Shown here: one piece after another, positions 2 to 44,084 of the stretch
Layout of the letters: every line of letters begins with the position of its first letter
Position numbering within the stretch: position 1 is the first letter of the stretch
Virus record (IMG/VR): IMGVR_UViG_3300043410_001007
Span: 39,930 to 103,929 of that record
Length of the DNA stretch: 64,000 nt
DNA from: a virus
Reading direction: 5' to 3' (one strand)
Notes under the pieces: generated by a model
The model's input: only the letters and a program-made list of their open reading frames with translations
The model's database searches: none
Told to the model about the DNA's origin: nothing
Translations under genes and position numbers: made by a program

Positions 2-3000
2 GTTGGTCAGCCAGCAGAGAAGACATCATTCTTAGCTACTGTTTCTGGCGGCACAAACACCGGTACAGGTACAGTTACACAAGAGTACACTACAATCGAT
101 ACTAAAGTGGATCTCACTGACCCACGTTTACAAGATGATCTCAGCGCAGTCACGCTATTCGACGGCTTCCTACCTAACGACTTTGCTATTAGTCAAGACA
201 ATCAGTGGTTGTACGTAAGTAATAAAAATACTAACGAAGTAAAAGTATTCATCAATGAAGTGGGCAAGTTCAAGCCAGTAAGCAAATACAAAGCAGAGAA
301 TTCATTCACTAACGGCGCAATCACCGCGGGATGGGGCACTACTATCGACACCCCTCGTGATGGTAGTAAACTAATTGTCGGCGCACCAGAAGAAACAGTA
401 GACGGTTCAGATAACGCAGGCGCAACATACATCTATGCTCGACTAACTGAGAACTTCTTACAAAGCGACCGCGCCCTAAAAATTGTACCATATCAAACAT
501 ACTCAATCGAAGATATGGGTGATGTAGACGCTACTAGTCTAGAGGGCTGGTTCGATCTAGGTGCCGGTGTACAGTTCAGAGCACGTATTACTAAAGACGA
601 TGGCTACATTGATAACACAGCTTGGAAATCAGGCACTATCATGACTGTCGGTGATGCTACATATGGCATCAAAGATACAACTGGTGCTAGTAGCATCATA
701 CGCATCGGTTCATACTTGAGTGGTTACGATCCCGCACATAGCGTTGGCGATACACAAGATCGTATCGTTGCTGGTACTACCGTTGTTGGCCAGTTCGACT
801 CATATGAAACAGATACACTAACAGCGTTCTGCGACGGAGCTAATGGTTCAAGTGAAATAACATTCGCTGCCAGAAGCACACCGGCCGCGGTCAGTGTAGG
901 GCAAATAGTTTGCGTAACAACACGTAATAGTACAACACCATTCGCAATCAACCATGTTAGTAAGGCTGACTATGAAGATAGTACTAAGAACAGTGAAGTT
1001 TCTAAAATTCAACCAGATACATATGTTGCTTACATCAAAAACAACGTAGACTATCACACAGTGTCACTATTCGATGGTACTAGTCACTCTACAGGAAGTC
1101 TAACAAAAGGCAGTGACGGTAAGATTTACAAGGCTAAGAATACCACCACTATGGACCCTGTTACTGATACTACGTTTGTAAACTGGTCACAAGTAAAAGT
1201 TACTGTTGGTTTGACAAGAAAACTAACAGGTCAACTAGCATCAGCAAACAATGAAGTATCATTCCGTGCGGCTGGTCGTACTGGTCGCTACATAGTCAGT
1301 GAGGCGCATAACTTTAGTGGTGCTCAGGTGAATCACATAGCAGGTTCAGTAGTCACTGCTATCTCTAAAGACGTACCGTTTGTTGCTCGTGGCTATGGCT
1401 CAATCGTAAAACGCATTAACGGTGTACTATCATCAGTAGACAAAACAGGAACAGTATCACTACGCAAAGACTTTATCATCAATGATGTAGTTCCTAACAA
1501 TAAAGTTATTGTCTACATCGATAACAAGCTAGTACCACTGTACACAATCGGTTATCGTAACGGTCGTAATTATCGCAGTTACAACTACAAGATAACAGTC
1601 AATACCCTACTCAATCAAACTAAAGTTAGTTTTACTAAAACACCACCTATCGGTAGTGTAGTTGTTATTGACTTTGGTAAACTAATCTTACAGCAACGAA
1701 CTCAAAGTGCGGCGCCACGTGTTGGCGCACAATACGGTCACAGCGTTGCTACTAACAATTGGGGCGCAGAAGTATTCACAGGCGCACCATATGAAATCTC
1801 AGACATCAACAGCAAACATAACATCGAGGGTGCTGTCTATCGCTGGACTAACGTAGGTCAACGATACAACAATATTGTTGGTGATCTAAAGAATTTAGTA
1901 CCAAACAACGCTGGTACATACGATGTTGATGCTAACATTTACATCGACGGCTTCTTAGTGAACATCAAGTTTACTGGTGAAGCATCTAAAGCATCAGTAG
2001 CCGAACGTATTGCTAAAATCATTGATACTACTGAACCTACTAACGTAATTGCTAGTTCTAATGGCACAACATTTACTATCTACAACGGTATCCCAGGCAC
2101 AACTAATGACCAGGTAGACATCACCGGTGACTTAGACAAGATTGGTATTACCCCTTACATCAAGACGCAGACTATCGTTGATACAATCAACTACAGTACT
2201 ACGGCCGCATTCGGCTACACCATCGCAGTCAACAAAGAACTCAATAGTACACGTGATGCGCTAATCGTATCTGCTCCCTACACTAACGTATTAGCAGAAA
2301 CAACATTCGACTTCATTGACGACCTGCGTGATGACGATACAATTTATGATAACGGTGGCACTACATTCGTTGATAGATTTACTTCTATCGGTGGCGTTTA
2401 TGAGTATGACTACTTAGCAAGCGACACTGAGACGCCTACTAATCCAGGTATCTACACATTCGGTCAATACGTCAATCACGTACCGTCCGAAACTGCCGCA
2501 CTAAGAGCTAATACACCTCGTTACGGTCAATCACTCAATTTCAATGATGGTACTATCACTGTTGGTAGCCCACTATGGTATCGTGACGGTACTGGCCGTG
2601 TATCTCAGTTCACTACTACAACATATGAGAGTTGCTGGTATGTAGACAAAGCACCTCTACCTAAAGTAGATGTAAATAAACTAGTAACAGTTGCTATCTA
2701 TGATACCAACGATGGCACTGCCCTATCTAGCCTGGACTACATTGATCCAGCACAAGGTAAACATCTAGCGGCAGTCAACACAAACTTAGACTTTATCGGC
2801 GCTACTGACCCTGCTAGTTACACCACTGGTATTATCTGGAACAAAAAGCAAGTTGGTAAGACTTGGATGGACACTACCAACTTCCGCTTGATGAACTACA
2901 ATCAGCCTGATCTACAGTACAACGCACGTTACTTCGGTCAAACATTCCCAGGCAGTACAGCAGATATCTACACATGGATAGAGAGTGATGTTGAGCCTAT

Positions 3001-6000
3001 GGATTACCAAGGCAGTGGTTATGTAGTCAGTATGGACGCTTACACTGCTGGTGTAGTATTCGACCGTCAAAGCAACACAACACAGACCAAGTACTACTAC
3101 TGGGTCAAGAACTATGGCGATATTCCACACGGTAAGACCTTAGCACCGACTACTATCGCTAGTTATGTATTAGACCCACTAAACAGCGGCATTCAATTCC
3201 TAGGCGCACTAAGCACAAACTCAATCGCACTATTCAATGCTAGAGAAAGTATCACTGAGAACACTAGTGCTCTACACGTAGGCTACAGTGAAAGTGATAA
3301 TGATGACGTTGGTCACCAAGACTGGTTACTCATACAAACTAATAACAAAGACAGCTTCTTGCCTGGCGTACCACTATCAATCGCTGATGCTCCAAGTGGG
3401 TTGTATCTAAAGTATCTAACCAGCTTCATGGGTCACGAAATTGATACAGAAACTCAACTAGTCAGAAAAGCCCTAACTGTGCCTGATGAAAACTTGAGTA
3501 TTCTAACAAGATATGGTGTATCATTCCGCCCACGTCAAACAATGTTCTTGGATCGTGAACTTGCTCTAAAGAATTACATTGATTATGCTAATCAAGTATT
3601 AGCTAGTGAACCTATCACAGAAACACGCGGCACATTCTTACTAAACAAGAGTGGCAGTGATTATGATACTGCTGACTTCTGGACAGTAACTGACTGGTGG
3701 GCTACCGGTTATTCTAGTAGCACAAAGCCATCACTAGAAGTTGATACTTACAATACTCTGTTGACTATCGGCAGTGTTGATCCTGTAAACGCTGATAGTA
3801 CCGGTATTGTCACAACACTAAGCGACGGTTTAGTAGCACGTGTAAAGAAGAACGGTCAAGGCCTGTATGAAACTTATCGATACACCTCTAGCGCTGGTTG
3901 GTCACGTATCAACTTAGAGAACGGTACTATCGCAATCAAAGATACAATCTACACACAAACGTCACCGATTCCATCGCAAGAAATCTATTGGATTATTCGT
4001 TGGCTAACTGAGCAGGTGTTCGTAGATGACTTATCAATCGAGAACAACAACTCATTGATTATGATGTTCAACTTTATTCAAAGTGATAGTCCACAGGGAC
4101 AAAACTATCTACCTTGGTTGAACAAGACAAGTCTAGTAGATATTCAACATACCATTCGACAACTACTACCGTACAAGAAGTTCCAGATTCAATCTAGTAC
4201 TCTAATCAACGGCTACATCAATGAAGTCAAACCATTCCACGTTTATGTAAAAGAGTTCTCATACAAGTACACTGCTACAGAGACATTCGAAGGCGACATC
4301 ACTGATTTCGACTTGCCAGCTAAATTCCGCTCTAGTAGTGCGACTTATGTTACGCCACGCCTAATACAGAAACAGTCAGAATCTCTTGGCGAATACACAT
4401 CTACTGATGGTATCTGGAGTGAGAGTGAATACGCAAACTGGTTCAAGTATCATGGTCTATCATACACTAACGATGGCGTTGGTGTAGAGGAATCAACTGT
4501 TGTTCCGGTTACACAAGTAATAGTAGATATTACAAGTAGCGCGGCTAGTATCTACGTAGAATCTGTTGCGGGTCTACCAGTAAGCGGTACAGTAAAAATC
4601 AATGGTGAAGAAATCTGGTACGAATCAGTAAATAGATCAACCAACTCAATCACTGGTCTAGTAAGAACAACTGGTAGTACTCACGCAAGTGGTTCAATAG
4701 TATCTCTCATTACTAAACCGGTAATGGTAATGGAAACAGGACGAGGCTATCTAGCTGCACCAATAGTTACTGCTTGGTATGATACAACTGACTTCCCGTA
4801 CGGTCCAACAGTTACTGCTACGTTTATGACTACAATGAAGAACGGCGGTCTAACTGTAGTTGATGTAGTAGAAGAAGGTCGTGGATATCCAACTACACCA
4901 GAACTACGTGTTAGTATGAGTAGCATCGTTAGTACATTTACTAGCGGTCAAGTAGATACACAAGTCAATCAGTTCAGCGTCGGTGGCCACCAGTTTGTAA
5001 ACGGTGACAGTGTTGTGTTCGTAACTGACTCGACAGACAGCAATCTAGCACTACGCAACTATGGCAACTACTATGTAGGCGCACTAGACGGCGAATCATT
5101 TGCGCTGTATGAAACTTATCGTGAGGCTATGGCTAGCTTTACAACTACTGAACCCATCGTTCGTGGCCGTGCCGCCGGTGATAACTATCACTTCTATCTA
5201 TCTAGTCCATATGATTATTCTACGCCAATGTTTGTAACAGGCGACTTAGTAAAATTACGCACAAACGTAGCGGGCGGAACTATTACTGACCCTTCATACA
5301 ATGATGCGTTCGAATATTACTATGCTCACGTAGATGAAAGCATCGATACAACCGGCGCTACACCTCACTATGCTCTGTATGATTATGTAACATTCCATAC
5401 ATCTCACAGTGATGCTATGAGTGGCGCTCACCCTGTCGAATTTGCGCCAGTGGGCGACCCTAATGCTGTAAGAAGTAATGAGTTCTGTATCGCAAGTCGT
5501 ACACAACGTGTTGATGATGGCAGAGTCACTATCGGTGCTAAGATTGATGGTACAGTTGGTATCGCGGCGAGATTACAAGCGTATCACGGTAATCGTCAAA
5601 CTCGTGGCATCAGAACCGCCATGAAGTTCGATAGAATTACATACAAGACATCAGTATTCAACTGGGAAAGTGGCGTCAATAGATTCCAAGAAATGGGCTG
5701 GGATGTAACAACCTGGAGCAAGGGCACTGCATACTCTAAGGGCGACCTAGTAGTGTACAACGGCCAACTTTATCGTGCTTCACGTGATACAATCAAACGT
5801 TGGGAAGTATCTAGTGCTAGTCCTAATGAAACTATCTCTCTATGGACACCTGGTACTAAGTACGCTGTTGATAAAAAAGTTCTGTACTCTACTATTATCT
5901 ACAAGTGTACAGAAGCAACTACAGATAAACCTACCGACGGTGACTTAGAAGTCTTTAGTCTAGCAAACTTCACTGAAGTCGCTAGTGATGATCCGCTCAT

Positions 6001-9000
6001 TACTGCGGCCGATCGTATTGTTGGTTTCTACAGACCTACTAGCGACATGCCAGGTAGTACCTATGCTGACCTAAGTCAACTAATGACTGGCACAACTTAT
6101 CCGTATCAAACGATTATTGATCCTGAGTTCACCTGGGGCGAGACATACGCATTCTTACCTCGTAACGTAGATACAGAAGAGAACACAGTAACTCTAAACA
6201 ATATCAAGCCACTACTAGCGAGTTACCAAGAAGTTGTCTATGGTACGTACACAACAACAGCAAACTCTATCACTCAGTATCACATGGCATCTCAGTTCAC
6301 GCCAGCAGTTACAGAAACTAACTTAGTTGGCAATTCACTGAGCGTAAGTGGCACACAGAACTTACACAAGGGCATGCCTATCCGATTTATCGGTGACATG
6401 ATCCAAGTTTACACTAACACAATCGTAAACGGCACAATCGTTGAGAGTGTTGCTAACGCATTCTACAAAGATACAACATACTTTATCGCCAATGTCGATG
6501 CTAGTAATAGTAGTATTCAAATTAGTTACAATCAGCAACTATCACAACTATCATCAATATCGACTACTGCGTCACGTGTTTACGCTAACGGCATGATTAC
6601 CCTAGATACAGCAATTGGTAACTACACAGACGCTACCATCAAGTTCTCTGGTAGTTCATTCGGTAACGTATCTGCTAACTTCTATTACATTGATAGTATC
6701 GATGGTACTGGTAAGAACGTAACTCTACGTACTGATGTATTCAGTAGTGGCGGGCAATTCGTTCCTCCTGTTAGTGCTAATATCGGTGCTAACGGTATCA
6801 GTGGTAATATGAAGGTCACTATTGACCCATACTTACCGCAGAAGAATGCAAGTGGTTACACCACTTTAGTTCTTGGACATCATGTTGGTATGATTGGTGT
6901 TGCTAATGCTAACGCTAATATTACTGTTACTGTTGATTCCACTGATGGACTGTATCTAAATGCTCCAGTAAAGTTCGGCGGCAATAGTATTGGTAACATC
7001 AGTAATAGCAGTGTTTACTTCATTAGTAATGTTGACGTTGCTAATAGCGCTATCAACATCGTTACTATTATGGGTGATACGACAGCGGTACCTAACGTAG
7101 CAAACGCTACTGGTACAATGACCGTTCGTACTGGCTTCCCGATTACAACAGTTACTGGTATCTCTAGTGGTAACTACTATGTTGCTAATACTACAACACA
7201 TATTGTAGGTTCAACTGGCAACATCACAGTAGGCACACTTGGTGCCAATGCTAAAGTTCAGTTTGCTAGTGGTAGTGTTTCTGGTGCTAATGTAAACAAG
7301 ACTACATCATACTACATTACTAGCGCTAATACAACTACTAATCATATTACTATTACTGATAAGTTAGTGGGCGGCACTACCATCACACCATCAACTAGTA
7401 CTCTTAGTAACAGTACTGGTCCACTCTATCTAGTATCAGACTACTACACCCAACCAGTTGAATCCAGTTACATCACTGGTGACTTGTTGAAGATGTACTA
7501 CAAAGACCCAGCAGATGAAACTATCGGTTTCTACTTTACAAACAGAGAAGCGAATAACGTAATCTCCTTGTATGCTTCGTCTGATGACGCGGAAGCAAAG
7601 ACTAATAGTATTGCTATCCACGACGGAGCATATGGCTACCTGGTCAAGCCACAAACAGTTGTATCGGCCGTTGGTCCACTAAAGTACATGATAGGCGACA
7701 TCGTGCCAATGACCTTCGAATTGTCTAGTCCAACTCTAGGCTTTGGTCTAACACCTAACAAGACATATTGGGCTCGCTTCATCTCTGTAACAACAGTTCG
7801 TCTGTATCGCACACGTACTGACGCACAGAACGAGTACAATCACCTACCACTACTAAAACAAATCGGTGGACAGATGGTCATCGGCTCACCAATTATCGTT
7901 GATGTAGTACAAGCAGATGGTAGTACTAAGATAGAAACAGTAGGTTACAATGAGTACGACAGTATCATCGTTAGCGACAATAACGTAACTCCTGACTACA
8001 ATGTAGCAGGCAAAGAGTTCACATGGGGCTTCGGTCCAGAAGAACTAATGGCGGGTGTAGTTAGTGATGGTGTGAACATCACTGTAACTACTCGTGCTGG
8101 TAGTACCTGGGACCCACTAGCAACAATCAACGGCACAGTAAACGCACGTGCCATCAGCGACAAGTTCGGTCATACTGGCTTCAACATGGTCCGCTTTGAT
8201 GCTTCTGCTAACGGCACTAAAGTAGACTGGTACTTAGATGCCGGCGACTTAGATAGTAATGGTCACGCAAAAATCAAATCTAGTGGTTTTGTTGGCGCAA
8301 CTACATTCGTTGAGAGTACATTCACTAACCCAGTAACAACACCATCTGGTGTGAAATTCGCATCAGCAGTGTACTTTGGTGATCGTGTGAAGAACCCCGT
8401 TACAGTTGAAGTTTATGCTAAAACAACTACTTATGGTCAAGTAAAACTAGTTGAGGGTACAGATTACATCCTAGACATGGCTAATAAAGTCATTCATAGT
8501 GTATCAAATACATACGTATCGATATCACTAGAGTTAGTGGTGTATGAGTTCGGTAACAGTAGTCACTTACTACGTAGCACAAGTGACATTTATGGCTTAC
8601 AAACTGTCGGCGATCATAGTGAGATGATGCTAGATGTTCCGTTTGCGCTAGTTGATCTTCCTACTATTGAAAACTACTGGCTGGGCGCATCAGTATTCGT
8701 CAATGGCGTAAAGTTAGAGTACTATGATGGTGTTCGTCCGCTATTCAATTACAATGCTCCAATGTTTAGTGTGATTCCACAGCGCCCATTCGATCCAAAG
8801 AATGACCCATACAACCCAGCCAAGATTGTATTCAATACGCTGTACACTTCCTCAGATTTTGCGTCATTCGTGTTAACCACTAACGTAATCGGCTACTATC
8901 GTGTAGAGAATGCTAGTGATACATACAAGGCCCCAATCACTGATGAAACTGCTTACTCCCGTGGCAAGATTGGTGTTTATGTAAACGGCGTACTCACCAC

Positions 9001-12000
9001 ACAAGATAGTGATTACAAGGTATCCATGATTACAAAAGGCAGTAAATCGGCGCTAGTAACAATCACATTTACTAGTGGTGTAGTAGCGGTGGGCGACAAC
9101 GTAAAGATTACTTACGAGAACGGTGGCGCTAGTGCTCCTATGATGGAAATGTTAGGCACACCAACGCCAACTACCGGTGCTGTACAGTATGATCTAACTG
9201 GCTTCCTGGGCGATAATAACTATGCGCCGTTCAGTGACTTACGTGTCCTATTCGATAACGCGGCATCTACTCAACCCAACACATTTGTTACACGTTGTGG
9301 TGTTGATTTAGCAGACGGTATGTCTGTGGTAGTTGTCGGTGACGATACTAACAAAATCATTCCTGGTTTCCCATCATCACATGCCGCAGACATTGTGACT
9401 AAGACATATTATCTACGTGATGTAGTCTATCACAGCGACAACTTATGGCAAGATACATTCGGTACTTACACATTCAGATTAGCAACTATCCCAGATGGTC
9501 AGCCAATCGTATTGAGTAGTGGTACAGATGGTACGGGTCAACCGCGCCACCTAACATTTGTAGTCAACAACGATAACTTGATTGTTGAGATTGACGGCAC
9601 ACGTATCAATGGTATCGCTCCTAATACTCTCAAGTACGGCGGTATTGCTACCCCAATCAACAACACAGTAACACTAAGTTACCCAGCACCAGTCTACAGT
9701 CGTGCTACATTCTCATCAAGTTATTTGATTGTGAACATCAACGGCGTGCCTTACTCTGCCGCAAATAATTTCGATAATATCGATCCTGTCTCTGGTGCTA
9801 GTAGACACATTCAGTGGTACACTAACTACGATGCTAATAATAACCTGATGGCTGGCTCTGATGCGACATTCAATGTTGATGATACACTAGCAGACACTGG
9901 AGCATTCTTCGACGCTGGTGACCCATTCGATAATCAAAGCATTATTGACATTGTATTTGCTTACGACCTCACAGGTAGTTCTGGTCTAATATCTACTGAT
10001 ATTATTACTGTTGAATACAACATAGTTGGTAACGCATGGGTATCAGGACAAACATACGAAGTGGGCGATATCGTTACTTACAATGGTGTAATCTTCCGTT
10101 GCTACAGTGATGTTACTAGTGCTACTAATCCAGTAACAGATTACTCTCACTGGTCGACTATTTCTATGTCACCACCTCCGGTGTATGTAGTAGAAGTAAA
10201 TCAAGATACTGCTGGAACTACCGGCGTGAACGAAACTTCTATCGGTGGCACTCTAACGGTTTATGCGCCATGGTTAGATAACACTCACAAAGTATCAGTG
10301 ACATCATTTGGTAGAACTACTCAACAGTATCTCAAGACACAAATCTTGAGTGACATCACTGTCACGCAGGTAACTAACGTTATTGAAATCACAGGTCAAC
10401 CAACAGTTGTCTACACTGGACCAACACTATCACTACCTGGCGCGGCCCATGGCATAAACATCGGCGACTTAGTAATGATCAATGGTACAGCAGTCAAAGA
10501 TTTAGATGGCGGCAACTATTACGCTAAACCAATCGATCTATCAGGAACGCTAGGCTCAACCTACACAGAAGAATACACATTCCAGTTGTTCTCTGATAGT
10601 GGTCTTGTTACACCGATTGATTTAGCAAACCCAGGCGCATTCCAGCCGATAACTACTGGTAAAGAAAGTTATGTACAGTTGTTACAAACTGCGACCAATA
10701 CTGCTTCCATAGCAGTCAACCCAGCGGTCATCAATCAGTCTCAATTCAATTTAGTTGATAAGCAACGCTTATTCGTTTCGTTCACTAAGGACAGTACAGT
10801 CAAAGGTTCAACAGGCCGCTATTACGTACAAACTAGTAAGTTCGATATTGCTACATTAGACTATGTAGATGAAGAGGGAACATCACAAACAGTGTACACT
10901 CTCATCTTGTTACAACCAGTAGTGCCTGGCAATCTGATTACTATCACGAGTATGGTACCAACAGCGTCTCCAGGCGAGAACAGATTACGTATGAATGCTC
11001 AATGGGATACTATCTCTAGTTCAGCAGTAGTGCCGTTCTTGTTCCAGCAAGACCCAGCAAATCAATTGTATTACACTAGTGTGTATCGTGAGCCTGAGGT
11101 TAGTAGAACGCATATTACTGCGGTTAATAGCAGTGATAGTATCACAGTTGCTAACCCATACGCTCTTGTACGTATCTACAACTACACTCGCAATATTAAT
11201 GAAATCGGTGTTCTAAAAACTGGTGAGCACTACGTACTAATCGAAGGCATTACTACTGACGAAATTGCTCAAATCAATATCACTGATAGTACTGGTGTGA
11301 AGATTGAAGAATTCTACTGGGTAAACTCTGGTAACTCATCGAGTGCTCGTATTGTATTCACATTCAACCCTAACTCAAAACTATCGATTGTAGTAGCAGT
11401 AGGCAATAACTTACTAATCAAGGGTGAACAATTACAATATCGTGCTGTAGAACTAGATGTAAACAAGACTAACTATGGTCAAATAACTGGTATTCGTCAT
11501 GCTAGAAATACAACGATTGCCGCTGACCTACAACCATATGATATCGTACAGAGTATCAAAGAAGAAGACCTGATGGCTTCTAGTTTGTACAATAAAACTT
11601 GGTACAGTAATACAGTTACCGCTTTAGTTGATACTAGTGGCGGCGATGTATCTGGTACGTACACACTACAGGACAGTACACTAGAAACATCACTAGTAAA
11701 AGTAGGTGACACGCTCAAGTTCAGCAGTACAAGTAATGATTTCTCTGGTATTGCTTATGTCTACACTGGTCTACAAGCAATCAAGTCGATTGTTAGTGAT
11801 AATGGTACCTATGTAAACTTTGCGATTACTGCGTATGGTGACACCGGATGTGTTATTACAGACCGCTATTACTATGATACTGGTACCAGTACATGGCTGT
11901 ATGATCGCCCATCTACTGGATCTCAGCCAGCTAAGTTTGGTGAGACTATGGTGGTGAGTGGCAATGCTACTGATGGTTACTACATGTCAGTTCGTGTAGA

Positions 12001-12679
12001 TCAGCCAGGAATGGCAGTTGGCCAGACAGTTGTGTGTAGCGCAATCGCTTACGCTATTCGTGAGGGTACTACCATATCCAATATTGAAGAGGCAACACCT
12101 AGTAAACCATCCAATGCTAAGATTATTACCATGTACAACAAGACTGGCTGGCCTCTACTCAAGGATATCCCTCGAGGAACAGCAATCCAATACGGTACTA
12201 CAATGCCAGTACTAGCGCCTAATGCTAAGTTCGCTAAGCCTGGGGAGAAGATCCAGTTCAGAAGATACAACAAAGCGAATGATGACTGGTCTACTAAAAT
12301 CAAATATTACGTAGCATCGGTTGGATCGTATTTGGACGTCTTTACAGTGGTAGAAAGCAAGGTCAACCCCGATAATCCACAACAATGGACCATCAAGATT
12401 GCTGAGCCAGTTACTATTCCTAGTGACGCCCGCGCAGAAATCGCAATCAGCGAATTCACAGTCACAGACATCGTAGATAACGGCGATACTACATACGCAG
12501 TGACAGTAGAAACTTACACTGATTGTGTTGATGGCTCAGGAGCAACCGCGGCAGCAACGCCGCTAATTACCGGAGGCTCAGTAACATACGCAACTGCTAC
12601 ATACAAGGTGATGGACAAGCCGCTACAACTTGATAATAGTAGCATTGCTGGTGGATTCTTGAATTACACGGCAAAATAA
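2..12679 (+). CDS. Giant virion structural protein (baseplate wedge/receptor-binding type), 5'-truncated by the window edge
   Basis: The frame of ORF 107..12679 is open from position 2 (VGQPAEKTSF...). It has FG-GAP/propeller-like motifs (LIVGAPEE, VFTGAPYE, LIVSAPY), CBM5/12-like motifs (WSKGTAYSKGDLVVYNGQLY, WVSGQTYEVGDIVTYNG) and Thr/Ser/Asn-rich beta composition, and lies directly upstream of baseplate/fibre genes. Confidence 0.8.
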   Translation, partial: VGQPAEKTSFLATVSGGTNTGTGTVTQEYTTIDTKVDLTDPRLQDDLSAVTLFDGFLPNDFAISQDNQWLYVSNKNTNEVKVFINEVGKFKPVSKYKAENSFTNGAITAGWGTTIDTPRDGSKLIVGAPEETVDGSDNAGATYIYARLTENFLQSDRALKIVPYQTYSIEDMGDVDATSLEGWFDLGAGVQFRARITKDDGYIDNTAWKSGTIMTVGDATYGIKDTTGASSIIRIGSYLSGYDPAHSVGDTQDRIVAGTTVVGQFDSYETDTLTAFCDGANGSSEITFAARSTPAAVSVGQIVCVTTRNSTTPFAINHVSKADYEDSTKNSEVSKIQPDTYVAYIKNNVDYHTVSLFDGTSHSTGSLTKGSDGKIYKAKNTTTMDPVTDTTFVNWSQVKVTVGLTRKLTGQLASANNEVSFRAAGRTGRYIVSEAHNFSGAQVNHIAGSVVTAISKDVPFVARGYGSIVKRINGVLSSVDKTGTVSLRKDFIINDVVPNNKVIVYIDNKLVPLYTIGYRNGRNYRSYNYKITVNTLLNQTKVSFTKTPPIGSVVVIDFGKLILQQRTQSAAPRVGAQYGHSVATNNWGAEVFTGAPYEISDINSKHNIEGAVYRWTNVGQRYNNIVGDLKNLVPNNAGTYDVDANIYIDGFLVNIKFTGEASKASVAERIAKIIDTTEPTNVIASSNGTTFTIYNGIPGTTNDQVDITGDLDKIGITPYIKTQTIVDTINYSTTAAFGYTIAVNKELNSTRDALIVSAPYTNVLAETTFDFIDDLRDDDTIYDNGGTTFVDRFTSIGGVYEYDYLASDTETPTNPGIYTFGQYVNHVPSETAALRANTPRYGQSLNFNDGTITVGSPLWYRDGTGRVSQFTTTTYESCWYVDKAPLPKVDVNKLVTVAIYDTNDGTALSSLDYIDPAQGKHLAAVNTNLDFIGATDPASYTTGIIWNKKQVGKTWMDTTNFRLMNYNQPDLQYNARYFGQTFPGSTADIYTWIESDVEPMDYQGSGYVVSMDAYTAGVVFDRQSNTTQTKYYYWVKNYGDIPHGKTLAPTTIASYVLDPLNSGIQFLGALSTNSIALFNARESITENTSALHVGYSESDNDDVGHQDWLLIQTNNKDSFLPGVPLSIADAPSGLYLKYLTSFMGHEIDTETQLVRKALTVPDENLSILTRYGVSFRPRQTMFLDRELALKNYIDYANQVLASEPITETRGTFLLNKSGSDYDTADFWTVTDWWATGYSSSTKPSLEVDTYNTLLTIGSVDPVNADSTGIVTTLSDGLVARVKKNGQGLYETYRYTSSAGWSRINLENGTIAIKDTIYTQTSPIPSQEIYWIIRWLTEQVFVDDLSIENNNSLIMMFNFIQSDSPQGQNYLPWLNKTSLVDIQHTIRQLLPYKKFQIQSSTLINGYINEVKPFHVYVKEFSYKYTATETFEGDITDFDLPAKFRSSSATYVTPRLIQKQSESLGEYTSTDGIWSESEYANWFKYHGLSYTNDGVGVEESTVVPVTQVIVDITSSAASIYVESVAGLPVSGTVKINGEEIWYESVNRSTNSITGLVRTTGSTHASGSIVSLITKPVMVMETGRGYLAAPIVTAWYDTTDFPYGPTVTATFMTTMKNGGLTVVDVVEEGRGYPTTPELRVSMSSIVSTFTSGQVDTQVNQFSVGGHQFVNGDSVVFVTDSTDSNLALRNYGNYYVGALDGESFALYETYREAMASFTTTEPIVRGRAAGDNYHFYLSSPYDYSTPMFVTGDLVKLRTNVAGGTITDPSYNDAFEYYYAHVDESIDTTGATPHYALYDYVTFHTSHSDAMSGAHPVEFAPVGDPNAVRSNEFCIASRTQRVDDGRVTIGAKIDGTVGIAARLQAYHGNRQTRGIRTAMKFDRITYKTSVFNWESGVNRFQEMGWDVTTWSKGTAYSKGDLVVYNGQLYRASRDTIKRWEVSSASPNETISLWTPGTKYAVDKKVLYSTIIYKCTEATTDKPTDGDLEVFSLANFTEVASDDPLITAADRIVGFYRPTSDMPGSTYADLSQLMTGTTYPYQTIIDPEFTWGETYAFLPRNVDTEENTVTLNNIKPLLASYQEVVYGTYTTTANSITQYHMASQFTPAVTETNLVGNSLSVSGTQNLHKGMPIRFIGDMIQVYTNTIVNGTIVESVANAFYKDTTYFIANVDASNSSIQISYNQQLSQLSSISTTASRVYANGMITLDTAIGNYTDATIKFSGSSFGNVSANFYYIDSIDGTGKNVTLRTDVFSSGGQFVPPVSANIGANGISGNMKVTIDPYLPQKNASGYTTLVLGHHVGMIGVANANANITVTVDSTDGLYLNAPVKFGGNSIGNISNSSVYFISNVDVANSAINIVTIMGDTTAVPNVANATGTMTVRTGFPITTVTGISSGNYYVANTTTHIVGSTGNITVGTLGANAKVQFASGSVSGANVNKTTSYYITSANTTTNHITITDKLVGGTTITPSTSTLSNSTGPLYLVSDYYTQPVESSYITGDLLKMYYKDPADETIGFYFTNREANNVISLYASSDDAEAKTNSIAIHDGAYGYLVKPQTVVSAVGPLKYMIGDIVPMTFELSSPTLGFGLTPNKTYWARFISVTTVRLYRTRTDAQNEYNHLPLLKQIGGQMVIGSPIIVDVVQADGSTKIETVGYNEYDSIIVSDNNVTPDYNVAGKEFTWGFGPEELMAGVVSDGVNITVTTRAGSTWDPLATINGTVNARAISDKFGHTGFNMVRFDASANGTKVDWYLDAGDLDSNGHAKIKSSGFVGATTFVESTFTNPVTTPSGVKFASAVYFGDRVKNPVTVEVYAKTTTYGQVKLVEGTDYILDMANKVIHSVSNTYVSISLELVVYEFGNSSHLLRSTSDIYGLQTVGDHSEMMLDVPFALVDLPTIENYWLGASVFVNGVKLEYYDGVRPLFNYNAPMFSVIPQRPFDPKNDPYNPAKIVFNTLYTSSDFASFVLTTNVIGYYRVENASDTYKAPITDETAYSRGKIGVYVNGVLTTQDSDYKVSMITKGSKSALVTITFTSGVVAVGDNVKITYENGGASAPMMEMLGTPTPTTGAVQYDLTGFLGDNNYAPFSDLRVLFDNAASTQPNTFVTRCGVDLADGMSVVVVGDDTNKIIPGFPSSHAADIVTKTYYLRDVVYHSDNLWQDTFGTYTFRLATIPDGQPIVLSSGTDGTGQPRHLTFVVNNDNLIVEIDGTRINGIAPNTLKYGGIATPINNTVTLSYPAPVYSRATFSSSYLIVNINGVPYSAANNFDNIDPVSGASRHIQWYTNYDANNNLMAGSDATFNVDDTLADTGAFFDAGDPFDNQSIIDIVFAYDLTGSSGLISTDIITVEYNIVGNAWVSGQTYEVGDIVTYNGVIFRCYSDVTSATNPVTDYSHWSTISMSPPPVYVVEVNQDTAGTTGVNETSIGGTLTVYAPWLDNTHKVSVTSFGRTTQQYLKTQILSDITVTQVTNVIEITGQPTVVYTGPTLSLPGAAHGINIGDLVMINGTAVKDLDGGNYYAKPIDLSGTLGSTYTEEYTFQLFSDSGLVTPIDLANPGAFQPITTGKESYVQLLQTATNTASIAVNPAVINQSQFNLVDKQRLFVSFTKDSTVKGSTGRYYVQTSKFDIATLDYVDEEGTSQTVYTLILLQPVVPGNLITITSMVPTASPGENRLRMNAQWDTISSSAVVPFLFQQDPANQLYYTSVYREPEVSRTHITAVNSSDSITVANPYALVRIYNYTRNINEIGVLKTGEHYVLIEGITTDEIAQINITDSTGVKIEEFYWVNSGNSSSARIVFTFNPNSKLSIVVAVGNNLLIKGEQLQYRAVELDVNKTNYGQITGIRHARNTTIAADLQPYDIVQSIKEEDLMASSLYNKTWYSNTVTALVDTSGGDVSGTYTLQDSTLETSLVKVGDTLKFSSTSNDFSGIAYVYTGLQAIKSIVSDNGTYVNFAITAYGDTGCVITDRYYYDTGTSTWLYDRPSTGSQPAKFGETMVVSGNATDGYYMSVRVDQPGMAVGQTVVCSAIAYAIREGTTISNIEEATPSKPSNAKIITMYNKTGWPLLKDIPRGTAIQYGTTMPVLAPNAKFAKPGEKIQFRRYNKANDDWSTKIKYYVASVGSYLDVFTVVESKVNPDNPQQWTIKIAEPVTIPSDARAEIAISEFTVTDIVDNGDTTYAVTVETYTDCVDGSGATAAATPLITGGSVTYATATYKVMDKPLQLDNSSIAGGFLNYTAK

Positions 12680-38037: not shown

Positions 38038-38246
38038 AGTTAGATTTTTACATCAAGTGGTCAGCAACCCTCGCTAGTTTACTATTAGTAATATGTAACA
38101 GTTACGATATTACACCTTACGATAGATGGATGGGTCTCGTAGCGGCTAACTTATGGATGTGGCTAGGTGTTCTATGGCGTGAGCCAGCAATGTGGATACC
38201 TAACTTTATTTTTACGATTATATACATTACAGGATTATTGAAATGA
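38034..38246 (+). CDS. Small multi-pass membrane protein
   Basis: Three hydrophobic segments; ATGA-coupled at both ends. Confidence 0.65.
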   Translation: MKLDFYIKWSATLASLLLVICNSYDITPYDRWMGLVAANLWMWLGVLWREPAMWIPNFIFTIIYITGLLK

Positions 38247-39214
38247 GGATACTAGTAACAGGCGGTCAAGGCCTAATCGGACACAACGTAGTTCATAGAC
38301 TGCTACAAGCGGGTCATCACGTTACTACACTAGACAATAGAACAAACTACGGTATCATACAACAAGATGAACTAGATTATCTATTGACTGAACGAGGTAA
38401 GTTAATTGAACGTGCTACTAATTTAGTGGGTGATATCTCTAACGCAAAGACAGTAGATGAGACAATCAGATCATTCTTGCCCGAGATCGTGGTTCACATG
38501 GCCTCGTTCCCTCGCCAGAAAGTAGTCAACAACAACCCTGCTCTAGGTAGCCGAGTAATGAGCGAGGGCCTAATCAACCTACTAGAGTCTGCCGCTCACT
38601 ATGATGTCCGGAAGTTCGTGTATATCTCTTCATCAATGGTGTATGGTGATTTTACTGACGATGTAAAGGAAGATTATGACTGCCGACCTCAAGGACAATA
38701 TGGAATACTCAAACTCGCAGGCGAATGGCTTGTCAAAGACTATACTCGCCGTTACGGCATTGCTCATACTATTATACGCCCCTCTGCTGTATATGGTCCA
38801 CTCGACGTGGAAGACCGTGTAATCTCTAAGTTCATGCTGACTGCTCTACGCGGCGGCACACTCAAGGTCAACGGTGCCGATGAGACACTTGACTTTACAT
38901 TCGTTAGTGACGCTGCCGACGGCATAGTAGCGGCCACTCTGTCGCCTAATACAGCTAATAAGACATACAACGTGACAAAATCTCACTCTTGGTCCCTACT
39001 TCGTGCTGCCGAACTGGCGGTTAAAATCGCCGGTCGTGGTACTATCGAATGTCGAGACCGAGACTTAGACTTCCCATCACGTGGTGCACTCAATATCGAT
39101 GCTGCCAGACAAGATTTCGGCTTCGATCCTCGAGTAGATGTCGAAGAAGGCTTCCAACGCTACCATGACTGGTTTACTCAGTCTACTTACTGGCAGTCTC
39201 GTATCAAAAGTTGA
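38243..39214 (+). CDS. NAD-dependent epimerase/dehydratase (extended SDR)
   Basis: TGGQGLIG, YISSSMVYG, YGILK (YxxxK), DFTFVSD. Confidence 0.92.
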   Translation: MRILVTGGQGLIGHNVVHRLLQAGHHVTTLDNRTNYGIIQQDELDYLLTERGKLIERATNLVGDISNAKTVDETIRSFLPEIVVHMASFPRQKVVNNNPALGSRVMSEGLINLLESAAHYDVRKFVYISSSMVYGDFTDDVKEDYDCRPQGQYGILKLAGEWLVKDYTRRYGIAHTIIRPSAVYGPLDVEDRVISKFMLTALRGGTLKVNGADETLDFTFVSDAADGIVAATLSPNTANKTYNVTKSHSWSLLRAAELAVKIAGRGTIECRDRDLDFPSRGALNIDAARQDFGFDPRVDVEEGFQRYHDWFTQSTYWQSRIKS

Positions 39215-39228
39215 TAAATAAGAGTATC

Positions 39229-39675
39229 ATGTGGATACTCAAATTCTTACCCGACTGGTTCCTTCATCTATCACTTATTGCTAGTGTTCTAGCAGTTCTG
39301 ATAGGCACCCTACTGGGCAATCTCTCATTCGTCAAACAATACACCACCATACTTAAAGTAGTTGGTGGTTTTGTACTTGTTCTAACGCTTTTCTTAGAAG
39401 GCGCACTACACGACAACAAAGTATGGGAAGCACGTGTCCTAGAAGTCGAAGCAAAACTAGCTAAGGCCGAAGCAGAAGCTGCCGCACAGAATACAAAACT
39501 CACTGACAAGGTAGCTACTAAGCAACAACAAGTCAAAGAGAAAGTGGTCATTGTAAAGCAATACATCGACCGCGAAGTCACTAAATACGACACAAAATTT
39601 ATGCCCGGTGGCATATGCGAAATCCCCAAGGAATTCATCAAAGCGCACAACGATGCCACGGAGCCAACTAAATGA
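39229..39675 (+). CDS. Inner-membrane spanin (Rz-like)
   Basis: N-terminal TM segments, long coiled coil, C-terminal Cys. Start reassigned to ATG 39229 after ATAAATA. Confidence 0.65.
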   Translation: MWILKFLPDWFLHLSLIASVLAVLIGTLLGNLSFVKQYTTILKVVGGFVLVLTLFLEGALHDNKVWEARVLEVEAKLAKAEAEAAAQNTKLTDKVATKQQQVKEKVVIVKQYIDREVTKYDTKFMPGGICEIPKEFIKAHNDATEPTK

Positions 39676-41648
39676 AAATAACAGATATTATCCTAGAAGC
39701 GGCCCCAGCCGCACCAACACAACAGCCGGCACAACCAGCTCAAGCTAATCCACAACAAGCGATGCTAGACAAACTAGGCGCAAGAGCAGGCGCCGCTGCG
39801 GGGTCAAACATTGATCAAGTCACTGACGCCTATCAACAAAAGCTACTAGATAGAATGGGTAAACGATTCGGTCTACCTCCTGGCTCATCTATGGAGCAAG
39901 TACAAGCTGCACAACAAGAATACTTAAATAAGAATGACCCACAGGCGGCAGCACAGTATCAACAACAAATGTCTAATATTGATGCTGGTAAAGAGGCGGG
40001 TCCAGCAGTAAATCTAACACAGCAACCAGCAGCCACACAACAGGCACCTCAGGCAGCACCACAAGCAAACCCAGACGAAGCTGGCGGCATGGCTGCAGCC
40101 AAGGCTGGCAAGTCACCAATTGCTATTATGTTAGCGCAACCAACTATTGCTGGTAACCAAGCATATCTTGATGTTATCGCACCTAGTGTTGGCCTAAAAC
40201 CAGGCGCAACAGCAGAACAAATTTTGGCAGCAGACACCCAAAGAAATAATCAGGCGGGTAATAAGTATGCCCAGAAACAAGCCGCGCCAGTAGCAGAAGG
40301 CAGAGCAACAGACAGTAAAGGTCGGACCCAACAAGAGTGGATCAAAGCAGTCATTAAAGCATACCCGGATGCTCGTATCGTACAAGCTAAAATGATTGAC
40401 GGACCATGTCACGCTATGTTATCAAACGGCAAGAAGCTATCATGGAACAAAGTGGTTGGCTTAGAAGAAGCACGTAAAGCAAATACAAAAAAAGCCCGCG
40501 CAGAGTTCAGTAAACGTACAAGCAAGCCTAAGTTAAGTGATAAAGAACAAGCTAAGAAGAAATCAGATAGTGATGAGGCATGGGAGCGTCTAATGGCTCA
40601 TATCGAAGCACAGAAGAAGGACAAAGACTTAGCAGAAGATAAAGACCCATGCTGGTTAGACTACAAGCAAGTAGGCATGAAAGAAAAGAACGGCAAGAAG
40701 GTACCTAACTGCGTACCTAAAGAAGGTATGGCGGAAGGCTCAGAGGAAGGTAGTTACTCTGATAAGTTTGTTCAAAGTCAGATTGATTACCATAGAAAAC
40801 ATGGATTGTCTGGCACAGCGGCTGATAGAGAGCGCATTAATGGTTCATTAAACTATTATCAGCATATTAAAAACAAACGCATCAAAGATGGTACATGGCA
40901 AGAGCAACGTGTGGCGGAAGGCTGGGACCCAGACACAACACGACTTGAGCAAGATGTTAGAGATGCGTTAGAGAATGGTGACGACTACACAGCAAAGCAA
41001 TATGCTAAGATGGCACCAACACCAGAAGCCAAGAAGTATCTACTAAACATTATCAAGCAAGCGATGTATATTGATGATTTAGGCGGCGAAACTGACTGGA
41101 AAGGCGTGACGGAAGCAGGTGAATGGACTAAACTTCCTAACGGCAACTGGAGAAACATGCACACTGGCGCACAACAATCAACTCCTCCTAAAACAAAGAA
41201 GCCTCGCAGAACAATGGGATTACACGCTAGTTTAGAACAACACGCTGATGACAAGATGAAAGAATTAGGTCATAAGTTCAGACCTGTAGCAGAAGATGAA
41301 GCGGGTACTAAAGGCTTTCGTGTAACATGGTCAGAAGCAGGTAGTGACAAACACACTAGTGGCTTGTTGTTAAAACCTGGTGCTATTGAACACGCTAAGA
41401 TGCTAAAAAAGAAACCTGGAACAAGCAATGTTAAAATTGTTCCTTATAGACAAGTAAGCGAGATGGACGGCAACGGCAGCGGTCGTGATGGTAGTAATCG
41501 TAAGCGCATCAGTAGCTACGGTACTAGAGACCGCGATATTTCAGGTCCTGATATTCACCTCGGCGCTAAGAATACAATGAAGCGTAAAGATATTGTCAAA
41601 CGTGCCGCTAGTACACTAAACAAAGCATTTAAGACGAGTAAAAAATGA
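39672..41648 (+). CDS. Modular putative internal head polyprotein
   Basis: N-terminal MKITDIILE; unrelated short segments separated by VAEG, LEEA, LAED, MAEG, VAEG, VTEA, VAED, VSEM. Confidence 0.55.
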   Translation: MKITDIILEAAPAAPTQQPAQPAQANPQQAMLDKLGARAGAAAGSNIDQVTDAYQQKLLDRMGKRFGLPPGSSMEQVQAAQQEYLNKNDPQAAAQYQQQMSNIDAGKEAGPAVNLTQQPAATQQAPQAAPQANPDEAGGMAAAKAGKSPIAIMLAQPTIAGNQAYLDVIAPSVGLKPGATAEQILAADTQRNNQAGNKYAQKQAAPVAEGRATDSKGRTQQEWIKAVIKAYPDARIVQAKMIDGPCHAMLSNGKKLSWNKVVGLEEARKANTKKARAEFSKRTSKPKLSDKEQAKKKSDSDEAWERLMAHIEAQKKDKDLAEDKDPCWLDYKQVGMKEKNGKKVPNCVPKEGMAEGSEEGSYSDKFVQSQIDYHRKHGLSGTAADRERINGSLNYYQHIKNKRIKDGTWQEQRVAEGWDPDTTRLEQDVRDALENGDDYTAKQYAKMAPTPEAKKYLLNIIKQAMYIDDLGGETDWKGVTEAGEWTKLPNGNWRNMHTGAQQSTPPKTKKPRRTMGLHASLEQHADDKMKELGHKFRPVAEDEAGTKGFRVTWSEAGSDKHTSGLLLKPGAIEHAKMLKKKPGTSNVKIVPYRQVSEMDGNGSGRDGSNRKRISSYGTRDRDISGPDIHLGAKNTMKRKDIVKRAASTLNKAFKTSKK

Positions 41649-41956
41649 CACCAGAACATAGCAAGCAAGTATTTAAATCAGTAATCGGCGCAGTGTTCGT
41701 GATTATGATAGTTGTATTCGTGCTCACTGGCTGTAGTACAGCAGTGCCAGTCACTGCTAAGTTCCCCGATGCGCCTGAGCGCCTCAAAGTAAAGTGTCCA
41801 CAACTACAAAAAGTAGATGAAAAAGCAAAACTAAGTGATGTAGCAAATACAGTCACACTAAACTACGGTACATACTACGACTGTGCTGTAAAGAACGATG
41901 CGTGGATTGAATGGTACGAAGTACAGAAGCGCATCTTCGAAGGAGCAGGTAAATGA
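41645..41956 (+). CDS. Outer-membrane spanin lipoprotein (Rz1-like)
   Basis: Hydrophobic stretch plus LTGC lipobox, Pro-rich region, two further Cys. Confidence 0.7.
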   Translation: MTPEHSKQVFKSVIGAVFVIMIVVFVLTGCSTAVPVTAKFPDAPERLKVKCPQLQKVDEKAKLSDVANTVTLNYGTYYDCAVKNDAWIEWYEVQKRIFEGAGK

Positions 41957-42753
41957 AAATCAGTGAAATCATAACAGAATCAATCAAAATATCTGAGTTC
42001 GAGGGAGATGCTACACAATTCAGCAACCCAACACAGACAACACCTACTACCGAGCGTCCACCTCGTAGAGGTTATTCGATAGAGTTAGTCGGTCGTCCAG
42101 GTAAAGATTGGATGGCTCAATACGCATGGGAAGCATTAGAAAAGGTGTTACCTAGAGATTACCCAGGTAATTCACAAGCCGCTGCTGCCGGCAATTCAAA
42201 TTTGCCACCCACTAATGCTATACGAAAAGTACTAGAAGTAGGTAGACACGGTTCCGCTGTAATTAAAACAGGTATCGCTAGTGAAGATATCGCAGAAACT
42301 ATCGTATCGAAATTATCGGCTAATAGATTACCAGCAAAATTTCTACGCATCACTAGTGAAGATTTAGACGAGAGCGAAAAGAGCCCAATGTTCAAAGACT
42401 CACAGAAAGCAGACCGCGTTCGTAGTCTAAAGAATCTTATTGCTATTGCTAAAGAACAAGGTCGTCAACTACGAGTGCAAGAACTTGAACTAGAGTTGAA
42501 AAAAGTACAAGGCCGACTAAACGAATTCGCCCCAGACAGTAATGATGACGGCAACGGCGAAGAGGACGCACTACTCAAGTACGCTAAAATGTGGTATCAA
42601 GGTGACTTGAAAACACAACAACAAGTCGAGAAAATCTTAGACCGTATGGGCTGGGAAATCGGCGAGTTAGAAAGTGAAGAAGGCGGCTGTTTTGTTATGC
42701 GGTCAGATGATGAAAACAGTTACATAGGATTCTCGGCAGAAGACCTACAATAA
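41953..42753 (+). CDS. Second modular putative internal head protein
   Basis: MKISEIITE start; ISE, LDE and LNE junctions. Confidence 0.55.
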   Translation: MKISEIITESIKISEFEGDATQFSNPTQTTPTTERPPRRGYSIELVGRPGKDWMAQYAWEALEKVLPRDYPGNSQAAAAGNSNLPPTNAIRKVLEVGRHGSAVIKTGIASEDIAETIVSKLSANRLPAKFLRITSEDLDESEKSPMFKDSQKADRVRSLKNLIAIAKEQGRQLRVQELELELKKVQGRLNEFAPDSNDDGNGEEDALLKYAKMWYQGDLKTQQQVEKILDRMGWEIGELESEEGGCFVMRSDDENSYIGFSAEDLQ

Positions 42754-43589: not shown

Positions 43590-44084
43590 CTATTTATGTT
43601 TGGTTTTACAGTTATCTCCGTGATGCTGAGTGTAATTTCCCTTGCCTTTTCCAGATTTACCACAATGAGTACAGGTCCATTGTAATTTAGTTGGTGAATT
43701 TGGTCCGATAAAGTTATGTGTTCCTGATAGCAGTTGTTTATGTGCTTTATCTCTTTGCCACGACGAGTTTAGAAATTTATGAGTTCCATTGGACAATCTT
43801 GTCTTGTTTGCCATGGATGCGTTCTTGGATATTTCTTCTGGTGATAAATTCATTCTTATTGCCATGGCATGACATTCTGCCCAATCTCTCTGTTTGAAAT
43901 GTAAATCGTAGTGGTCTTTTATAGATAAGGCAACTAAGTTATCGACTGAATTATTCGTACAGTCACCATCAAGATGATGTATTTCGTAAGTTCTCCCATC
44001 GGCATCTGTAGGAATAGTTCCGTGGCGCATTTCGTAGATTCTGCGATAGACGGAGTTTGGTGATCTCTTCTTATAAATAGTCAT
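43590..44084 (-). mobile_element. Free-standing HNH homing endonuclease
   Basis: EIHHLDGDCTNNSVDNLVAL...HYDLH, GTHKF/GTHNF repeats, C-terminal CTHC...HHGDNC finger. AAGGAG SD before ATG 44084. Confidence 0.85.

Follow-up and report, generated by a model that had tools for sequence, protein, structure and literature searches.

Why should the codons at the joints between the modules of a phage polyprotein be held to a particular nucleotide sequence? The question was raised by a stretch of viral DNA of 64,000 nucleotides (nt; here, the window), which covers positions 39,930-103,929 of the IMG/VR virus record IMGVR_UViG_3300043410_001007; the full record of 103,929 bases is designated G000. On the plus strand of the window, an open reading frame (ORF) at positions 39672-41648 encodes P0001, a polyprotein of 658 amino acids (aa) in which a leader is followed by a string of small unrelated modules. 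An initial annotation of the window had proposed that the codons of the cleavage sites between these modules, or cassettes, double as a DNA crossover site, such that cassettes are gained or lost in frame as in an integron placed inside an ORF. In this paper, we report a comparison of the gene with its relatives, from which we consider it fairly probable that P0001 is cleaved head cargo of a phage whose joints double as in-frame DNA exchange points. This reading draws on a codon lock at the joints, homology breakpoints at the core of the joints, the gain, loss or replacement of whole cassettes, and the presence of a prohead protease gene in the phage genome.

Joint motif in the window

The initial annotation had described the motif RTGRCGGAAG at three consecutive joints, and the three strings were located exactly where it had placed them, at 40725, 40908 and 41103. 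These are the only matches in the window, against 0.26 expected by chance (one of 100 shuffles also gave three), and no further copy occurs in the 103,929-base record. All three copies lie in frame within the polyprotein ORF, at positions P3-P1' of V/M-A/T-E|G/A sites. Joint 1 reads GMAE|G (GGTATGGCGGAAGGC, 40725-40739), joint 2 reads RVAE|G (CGTGTGGCGGAAGGC, 40908-40922) and joint 3 reads GVTE|A (GGCGTGACGGAAGCA, 41103-41117), the relatives having GGTGTGGCGGAAGC/G at the last of these positions. The codons GTG, GCG and ACG, which had been taken to be uncommon, are indeed minority codons in this genome, where they account for 13.2% of Val, 12.1% of Ala and 6.9% of Thr codons respectively. Given the residues, the combined probability of the five G-ending codons is approximately 1.8e-5, a post hoc figure. 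The signal from the window alone is suggestive, being of modest significance and post hoc.

The weight of the finding comes from the relatives, in which the same joint is a codon-locked 15-mer, GGTGTGGCGGAAGGC (G-V-A-E|G). When aligned with this consensus, the three window joints read as decayed copies of the family 15-mer with 1, 1 and 4 mismatches respectively, so that RTGRCGGAAG, which is real and in frame, proved to be only a degenerate local form of it. The string GTAGCAGAAG, to which the other joints had been assigned, was found at 40290, in the joint PVAE|G (CCAGTAGCAGAAGGC, 40287-40301), and at 41286, in the joint PVAE|D (CCTGTAGCAGAAGAT, 41283-41297). The former has 5 mismatches to the 15-mer and is composed of common codons of the genome, and the latter has 6. 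Judged from the alignment, these two joints have drifted to the usual codons of the genome with the peptide motif kept.

A codon-locked 15-mer in the relatives

A search of 5.8 billion proteins returned 144 relatives of P0001 with lengths of 361-1133 aa. The similarity of each to P0001 is confined to one to three stretches, in which the identity is often 85-96%, and the relatives are built as strings of 55-100-residue units split by (E/K)QGVAE|G. The ends of the BLAST alignments cluster at the joints (410/411-481/484, 477-541, 542-597 and 350/351-417); for cassette 1, relatives at 85-88% protein identity have their alignment limits at residues 350/351 and 417. Domains recognised in the relatives include ART-PolyVal, ribosome modulation factor (RMF), methyltransferase, GP88, DUF6321 and DUF5661, an assortment that fits an effector role. 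Two of these proteins from outside the window, P0104 and P0035, carry an RMF domain, or an ART-PolyVal ADP-ribosyltransferase together with a methyltransferase. Such domains are a hint that the cassettes include effectors of host translation or host modification.

For the analysis of codon usage, the ORFs were retrieved by protein similarity in order to avoid circularity, and joints were kept only if their 45-nt flanks were non-homologous to those of every other joint, leaving 56 joints from 20 ORFs. The exact 15-mer was present in 18 of the 56 joints; from background codon use, a share of 0.18% would be expected for a GVAEG peptide. Val at the joint was encoded by GTG in 35 of 42 cases versus 106 of 677 (16%) in the background of the same ORFs (Fisher p = 3e-20), and Ala by GCG in 29 of 38 cases versus 91 of 1058 (9%; Fisher p = 4e-22). 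The P4 Gly was GGT in 45/56 joints and the P1' Gly was GGC in 26/37, and the 15-mer was often preceded by CAA. VAE tripeptides in the other genes of five genomes were unbiased (GTG in 12/92, GCG in 6/92). The unlike codons of the two Gly residues and the unbiased VAE elsewhere indicate a specific sequence and not a dipeptide context effect or mere codon rarity. Conservation at silent sites had been named as a check by the initial annotation, and the synonymous positions of the joint do not vary freely.

The core of the joint was also traced as a 14-mer, i.e. the 15-mer minus its last base. Two exact 14-mer cores at a distance of 151-181 nt were found in at least 120 viral contigs of up to 352 kb, and such a pair would be essentially impossible by chance. 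Among the matches listed, 80 loci contained 145 core-bounded cassettes, of which 144 are in frame (spacing a multiple of three), and these 145 sort into 86 unrelated families.

Homology breakpoints and exchange of cassettes

A set of 42 non-redundant polyprotein ORFs was compared at the nucleotide level, and the positions at which similarity begins and ends were taken from the matches of ≥85% identity. Seventy-five of the 167 match ends fell within 15 nt of a joint, compared with 11.4 expected and a maximum of 23 in 1000 randomisations. The starts of the matches are concentrated at -14 and their ends at +1 to +3, positions that coincide with the two edges of the 15-mer.

Individual cassettes gave the same picture. 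Along its entire length, cassette 2 (aa 417-481, 40920-41114) matches at least seven distinct contigs with unrelated flanks at 87-94% nucleotide identity, and along part of it one more at 81%; its similarity to other contigs is lost immediately outside both cores. Joint 2 is a breakpoint in the comparison with P0002, the closest relative of P0001, and with at least six other phage contigs. From joint to joint, cassette 3 (aa 482-541, 41115-41294) is 88.7% nucleotide-identical to the locus L002. The loci L027 and L026 are 99.2% identical through the core and unrelated beyond it. Different neighbours on at least one side were seen in 24 of 58 cassette pairs at ≥85% identity, and some of the pairs that had switched context are 98-100% identical within the cassette.

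Whole cassettes have also been gained, lost or replaced. The relatives P0103 and P0109 are 99% identical except for one cassette of 95 aa. In the DNA of P0103 (L026), perfect direct repeats of 15 nt stand on either side of this cassette; P0109, which was compared at the protein level, reads exactly as the product of recombination between these repeats. Also at the protein level, P0002 is 100% identical to P0001 at residues 414-536 and approximately 95% identical at residues 544-658. Its N-terminal part differs, a homologue of P0001's own 210-266 cassette stands in the place of cassette 1 (aa 356-416, 40737-40919 in P0001), and a 28-residue insert ending in GVAE is found at the residue-541 joint.

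Hence, it is at the motif that homology breaks off and that cassettes are present in one relative and absent from another, and the predicted in-frame gain and loss of cassettes agrees with the P0103/P0109 indel and with the replacement and insert in P0002. Neither of the two outcomes that the initial annotation had set as refuting, freely varying synonymous positions and breakpoints away from the motif, was obtained. The proposal that the cleavage codons are themselves the crossover site holds in a tempered form: the codon lock and the breakpoints point, by comparison, to one short sequence that acts as an in-frame exchange point and is a probable cleavage site.

Head module and predicted cleavage of P0001

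The IMG/VR record has an estimated completeness of approximately 29% of a genome of about 350 kb. It contains a head module in the T4 order, consisting of portal, a gp21-family Peptidase_S77 protease, a scaffold-like protein and the major head protein. The protease gene (G000:C1:8759-9406, minus strand) belongs to phrog_207, head maturation protease, and lies between the portal gene on one side and the scaffold and capsid genes on the other; within its ORF, a PF03420 match of 92 bits spans G000:C1:8909-9346. The same protease family is present in G001, a 97%-complete relative of 338 kb. In T4, gp21 cuts after Glu in L/I-x-E and the capsid-targeting sequence (CTS) has ten residues (PMC9026906). 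Sites of the form [LVIM]-x-E|[SAG] are numerous in the scaffold-like and capsid proteins of G000, in agreement with the T4 rule.

P0001 itself starts with a nine-residue leader, MKITDIILE|A (39672-39698), which resembles the T4 CTS, ends in I-L-E and may have the same function. P0002 starts with MKISEIVTE|G and gp18, a multidomain protein of the cultured phage Melnitz, with MKKFSEIIE|A. Many relatives have other N-termini, start calling being crude, and the leader was matched by pattern, as no CTS profile exists. With a gp21-type protease encoded and a CTS-like leader present, the joints are probable cleavage sites. P0001 would then be the head-cargo polyprotein of a giant T4-type phage. Its leader would probably load it into the prohead, where the gp21-type protease would probably cut after Glu at each hydrophobic-x-Glu joint and free mini-proteins of approximately 55-65 residues that would travel with the DNA. 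Across the wider family, the codon-locked 15-mer would flank every cassette as a direct repeat.

Evaluation of alternative explanations

A number of points weigh against cleaved head cargo with exchangeable joints. The support comes wholly from sequence comparison. The P3 residue is Val, not Leu or Ile as in T4, and no joint in the window is a perfect copy of the consensus. For 66 of the 167 match ends, the nearest strict joint is more than 30 nt away, and the breakpoint within cassette 3, at approximately aa 509-511, is not at a V-A-E joint. A sequence of 15 bases is short for strand-exchange proteins. Joints with a breakpoint have on average 2.0 mismatches to the consensus versus 2.84 for other joints (p = 0.08), a difference that is not significant and does not tie core identity to mobility. 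Selection for domain integrity would likewise put the surviving breakpoints at linkers.

The joints could be flexible linkers only, in a protein that remains whole or is otherwise processed and that is not head cargo. The polyprotein gene lies amid lysis-like and metabolic genes, outside the head module, which together with the Val at P3 speaks for such linkers; however, the genes for the T4 internal proteins are likewise outside the head module (PMC9026906). A gp21-family protease is present in the genome, and the joint motif (hydrophobic-x-Glu, then a small residue) follows the pattern of the sites in the phage's own scaffold-like and capsid proteins. The CTS-like leader ending in I-L-E and the ART-PolyVal and RMF domains of the relatives, as expected of injected effectors, also argue for cargo, and we consider linkers alone to be unlikely.

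We give somewhat less credence to the suggestion that the core is kept for a reason at the level of RNA or translation, such as a rare GTG-GCG pause for folding or an RNA-binding factor, with breakpoints at the joints resulting from selection against broken domains. Both codons at the centre of the core are rare in these genomes, viable chimeras are expected at linkers anyway, and the comparison of consensus match with breakpoint status did not separate the joints beyond p = 0.08. One specific sequence is kept, however: GGT is favoured for the P4 Gly but GGC, which is just as common, for the P1' Gly, and Glu is encoded by the common GAA. Since each of the two Gly residues has its own preferred common codon, we ranked a rare-codon pause as the full explanation lower than a reading at the DNA level. 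Moreover, intact genes such as P0001 lose the nucleotide consensus yet keep the peptide motif, and perfect direct repeats flank cassettes. The match ends lie no more than 1-3 bases from the edge of the core, where identity drops from 99-100% to nothing, and ends as sharp as these would not readily arise from random illegitimate joining followed by selection.

If the joints are exchange points, the sharp conservation of the site and its length, about that of a recombinase or homing-endonuclease target, could also suggest an integron- or shufflon-like site-specific system in which a dedicated recombinase or endonuclease recognises the 15-18-base core. An HNH endonuclease gene is indeed present approximately 2 kb downstream in the window, but it is not a conserved neighbour of the polyprotein genes. 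Tyrosine and serine recombinases (PF00589, PF00239) gave no match in G000 (approximately 29% complete), in three other fragments or in the 97%-complete G001 (G000-G004 in all), with positive controls. The core GGTGTGGCGGAAGGC has no dyad symmetry, is not palindromic and has no inverted-repeat structure. We regard a dedicated system as improbable, and the likeness to an integron drawn by the initial annotation, which had called for a search for an associated recombinase, fails on mechanism.

With neither an integrase nor a resolvase found in these records and a core that is not a palindrome, recombination of a general, homology-guided kind is likelier than an integron-like system. A Chi-like hotspot, considered in view of the G/T-rich core, was not adopted, since it would have to be judged against the host. 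Genes for general recombination are available, namely SbcC/gp46-like and RusA-like genes in G000 and RecA/UvsX-like genes in G001 and G002. We propose that exchange proceeds by homology-guided recombination, single-strand annealing or copy-choice at the short shared core, and that the engine would be the general recombination and replication machinery of the phage and not a dedicated recombinase. Such recombination or copy-choice could take place between any two cores, within a gene or between co-infecting phages. A crossover at the core would automatically be in frame and would restore the cleavage site, and cassettes could thereby be deleted, inserted or replaced as units. The core may have become fixed because cassettes with intact cores are those that spread; a further role at the level of RNA or translation is another possibility.

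Finally, it is very improbable that the three window copies reflect codons chosen by chance or are left over from a local tandem duplication, for although one of 100 shuffles reached three matches and the probability figure is post hoc, the enclosed cassettes are mutually unrelated, two of the three copies are one base off the consensus and the family-wide data, with the same core at unrelated cassettes in at least 120 contigs, disfavour such an origin.

Organisation of P0001 and its neighbourhood

The first 200 residues after the leader (39699-40298) are Ala/Gln/Pro-rich and contain approximately three copies of the motif G(L/A)xPG..(M/A)EQ(V/I). This region has separate relatives, P0077-P0093, of 380-415 aa at about 59% identity. 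A Cys-motif module of 33 residues (aa 323-355, 40638-40736; DPCW..YKQVGMK.KNGK.VPNCVP) is widespread in T4-like marine phages and is common to many cultured T4-like cyanophages and the Methylophilales phage Melnitz. In S-TIM5, the module occurs in a free-standing 103-aa ORF amid virion genes, and in Melnitz within a 650-aa protein that has a CTS-like leader and a nucleotidyltransferase-like N-terminal part.

Cassette 1 had been described as TTAA-rich, and it does have three TTAA in 183 nt versus 1.7 per kb genome-wide, a density to which we could attach no meaning; TTAA as a clue to a transposon target was dropped, there being just three copies and no other support. Cassette 2 was modelled as a three-helix unit with a predicted local distance difference test (pLDDT) score of 80. 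The fold had no significant match in the PDB and only generic helical neighbours in the ESM Atlas, and a metagenome scan with this cassette returned just four loci. Cassette 3 is composite, as residues 485-509 and 511-542 have different nucleotide relatives.

For the protein as a whole, Pfam gave no match at E ≤ 0.01 and the PHROGs matches were to families of unknown function only. A megablast search of the ORF against cultured phages gave no match, and a tblastn search detected the Cys-motif module only. AlphaFold, run on the whole protein as a single sequence, gave a poor model (pLDDT 52). No embedded peptidase domain was detected in P0001 or in the relatives scanned.

The polyprotein gene is the third of five successive plus-strand genes (38243-42753), encoding an epimerase, a spanin-like protein, the polyprotein, an Rz-like protein and a second modular protein. 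Start and stop of adjacent genes overlap by 4 bases, a pattern that suggests that their translation is coupled. Upstream of the polyprotein gene, there is no T4 late-promoter box TATAAATA, and the 64 kb contain a single exact copy (44072-44079) versus 4.7 expected by chance; the late promoters of this phage probably differ from those of T4. Among the polyprotein loci, a Dps/ferritin-like gene (PF00210) was the only recurrent neighbour, seen in 13 of 42 loci and usually directly downstream (eg. L146:3814-4305). At its start, the window is entered by an open frame of approximately 6,540 residues (window 2-12679; G000:C1:32986-52608).

Implications and comparison with known systems

On a broader view, which we put forward tentatively and rate as possible, giant T4-type phages keep an environment-wide shared library of at least dozens of unrelated mini-protein cassettes, which are swapped in frame through a codon-locked joint of 15-18 bases that is at once the cleavage site of the prohead protease and a recombination hotspot selected for exchangeability. 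If so, these phages would have a modular and rapidly reconfigurable arsenal of injected effectors, integron-like at the level of protein domains and operating without a recombinase. One short sequence would do two jobs, as a protease site in the protein and as a safe in-frame exchange point in the DNA, and this would account for the reshuffling of small injected proteins, likely factors for counter-defence or host takeover, by giant phages. The silent positions of the joint would then offer a clear example of conservation in the service of evolvability, or of conservation brought about as exchange-competent cassettes spread. As a search key, two cores one cassette apart already yield the 86 unrelated families of candidate injected mini-proteins, and the arrangement suggests a natural design rule for loading T4-type capsids with multiple cargos. 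A full-text literature search found no paper on GVAEG in phage, and no description of such swappable cut-site joints came to light.

For packaging and processing, the polyprotein would resemble the T4 internal proteins IPI, IPII, IPIII and Alt, which carry a CTS and are processed by gp21 (PMC9026906, PMC3012670). As in these proteins, the leader of P0001 is short and ends in hydrophobic-x-Glu, and a gp21-family protease is encoded in the genome. The T4 cargo is similarly small and diverse, is thought to be injected for counter-defence and is highly variable between related phages. However, the T4 internal proteins are encoded by separate genes with one leader each, whereas in P0001 many cargos are chained in one ORF with predicted internal cut sites, and the DNA sequence of the predicted cut site is itself conserved and marks the point of exchange.

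For the delivery of several effectors, a possible parallel is offered by polyvalent proteins, which are described as being released by embedded MPTase-type peptidase domains (Iyer et al. 2017; PMC5512222) and combine many unrelated effector domains in one DNA-delivered polypeptide of mosaic make-up; ART-PolyVal is found in the relatives of P0001, though P0001 itself has no Pfam match. The paper on polyvalent proteins describes no conserved joint at the nucleotide level and no prohead-protease sites between domains (PMC5512222).

Like the cassettes of integrons and of R64-type shufflons, the latter located inside a coding region, the cassettes described here are unrelated to each other, are bounded by a short conserved site, occur in different contexts and are gained, lost and reshuffled. 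Unlike in those systems, no integrase or Rci-type recombinase was found in the records scanned (G000-G004) and the site is without an attC- or sfx-like folded structure; translation runs through the repeats, which are direct, and each cassette corresponds to a protein module and not to a gene.

In terms of the exchange itself, there is also a likeness to the PeSL promoter-terminator motifs, which mediate modular gene shuffling in T4-like phages (PMC4122927). In both cases, a short conserved nucleotide motif common to unrelated sequences stands at the borders of swapped segments in T4-type phages and serves as the exchange point, presumably via the homologous recombination of the phage. PeSLs are intergenic, approximately 50 bp long, combine an early promoter with a stem-loop terminator and move whole genes, whereas the joint of the polyprotein family is 15-18 bp long, in frame and translated, and moves protein modules.

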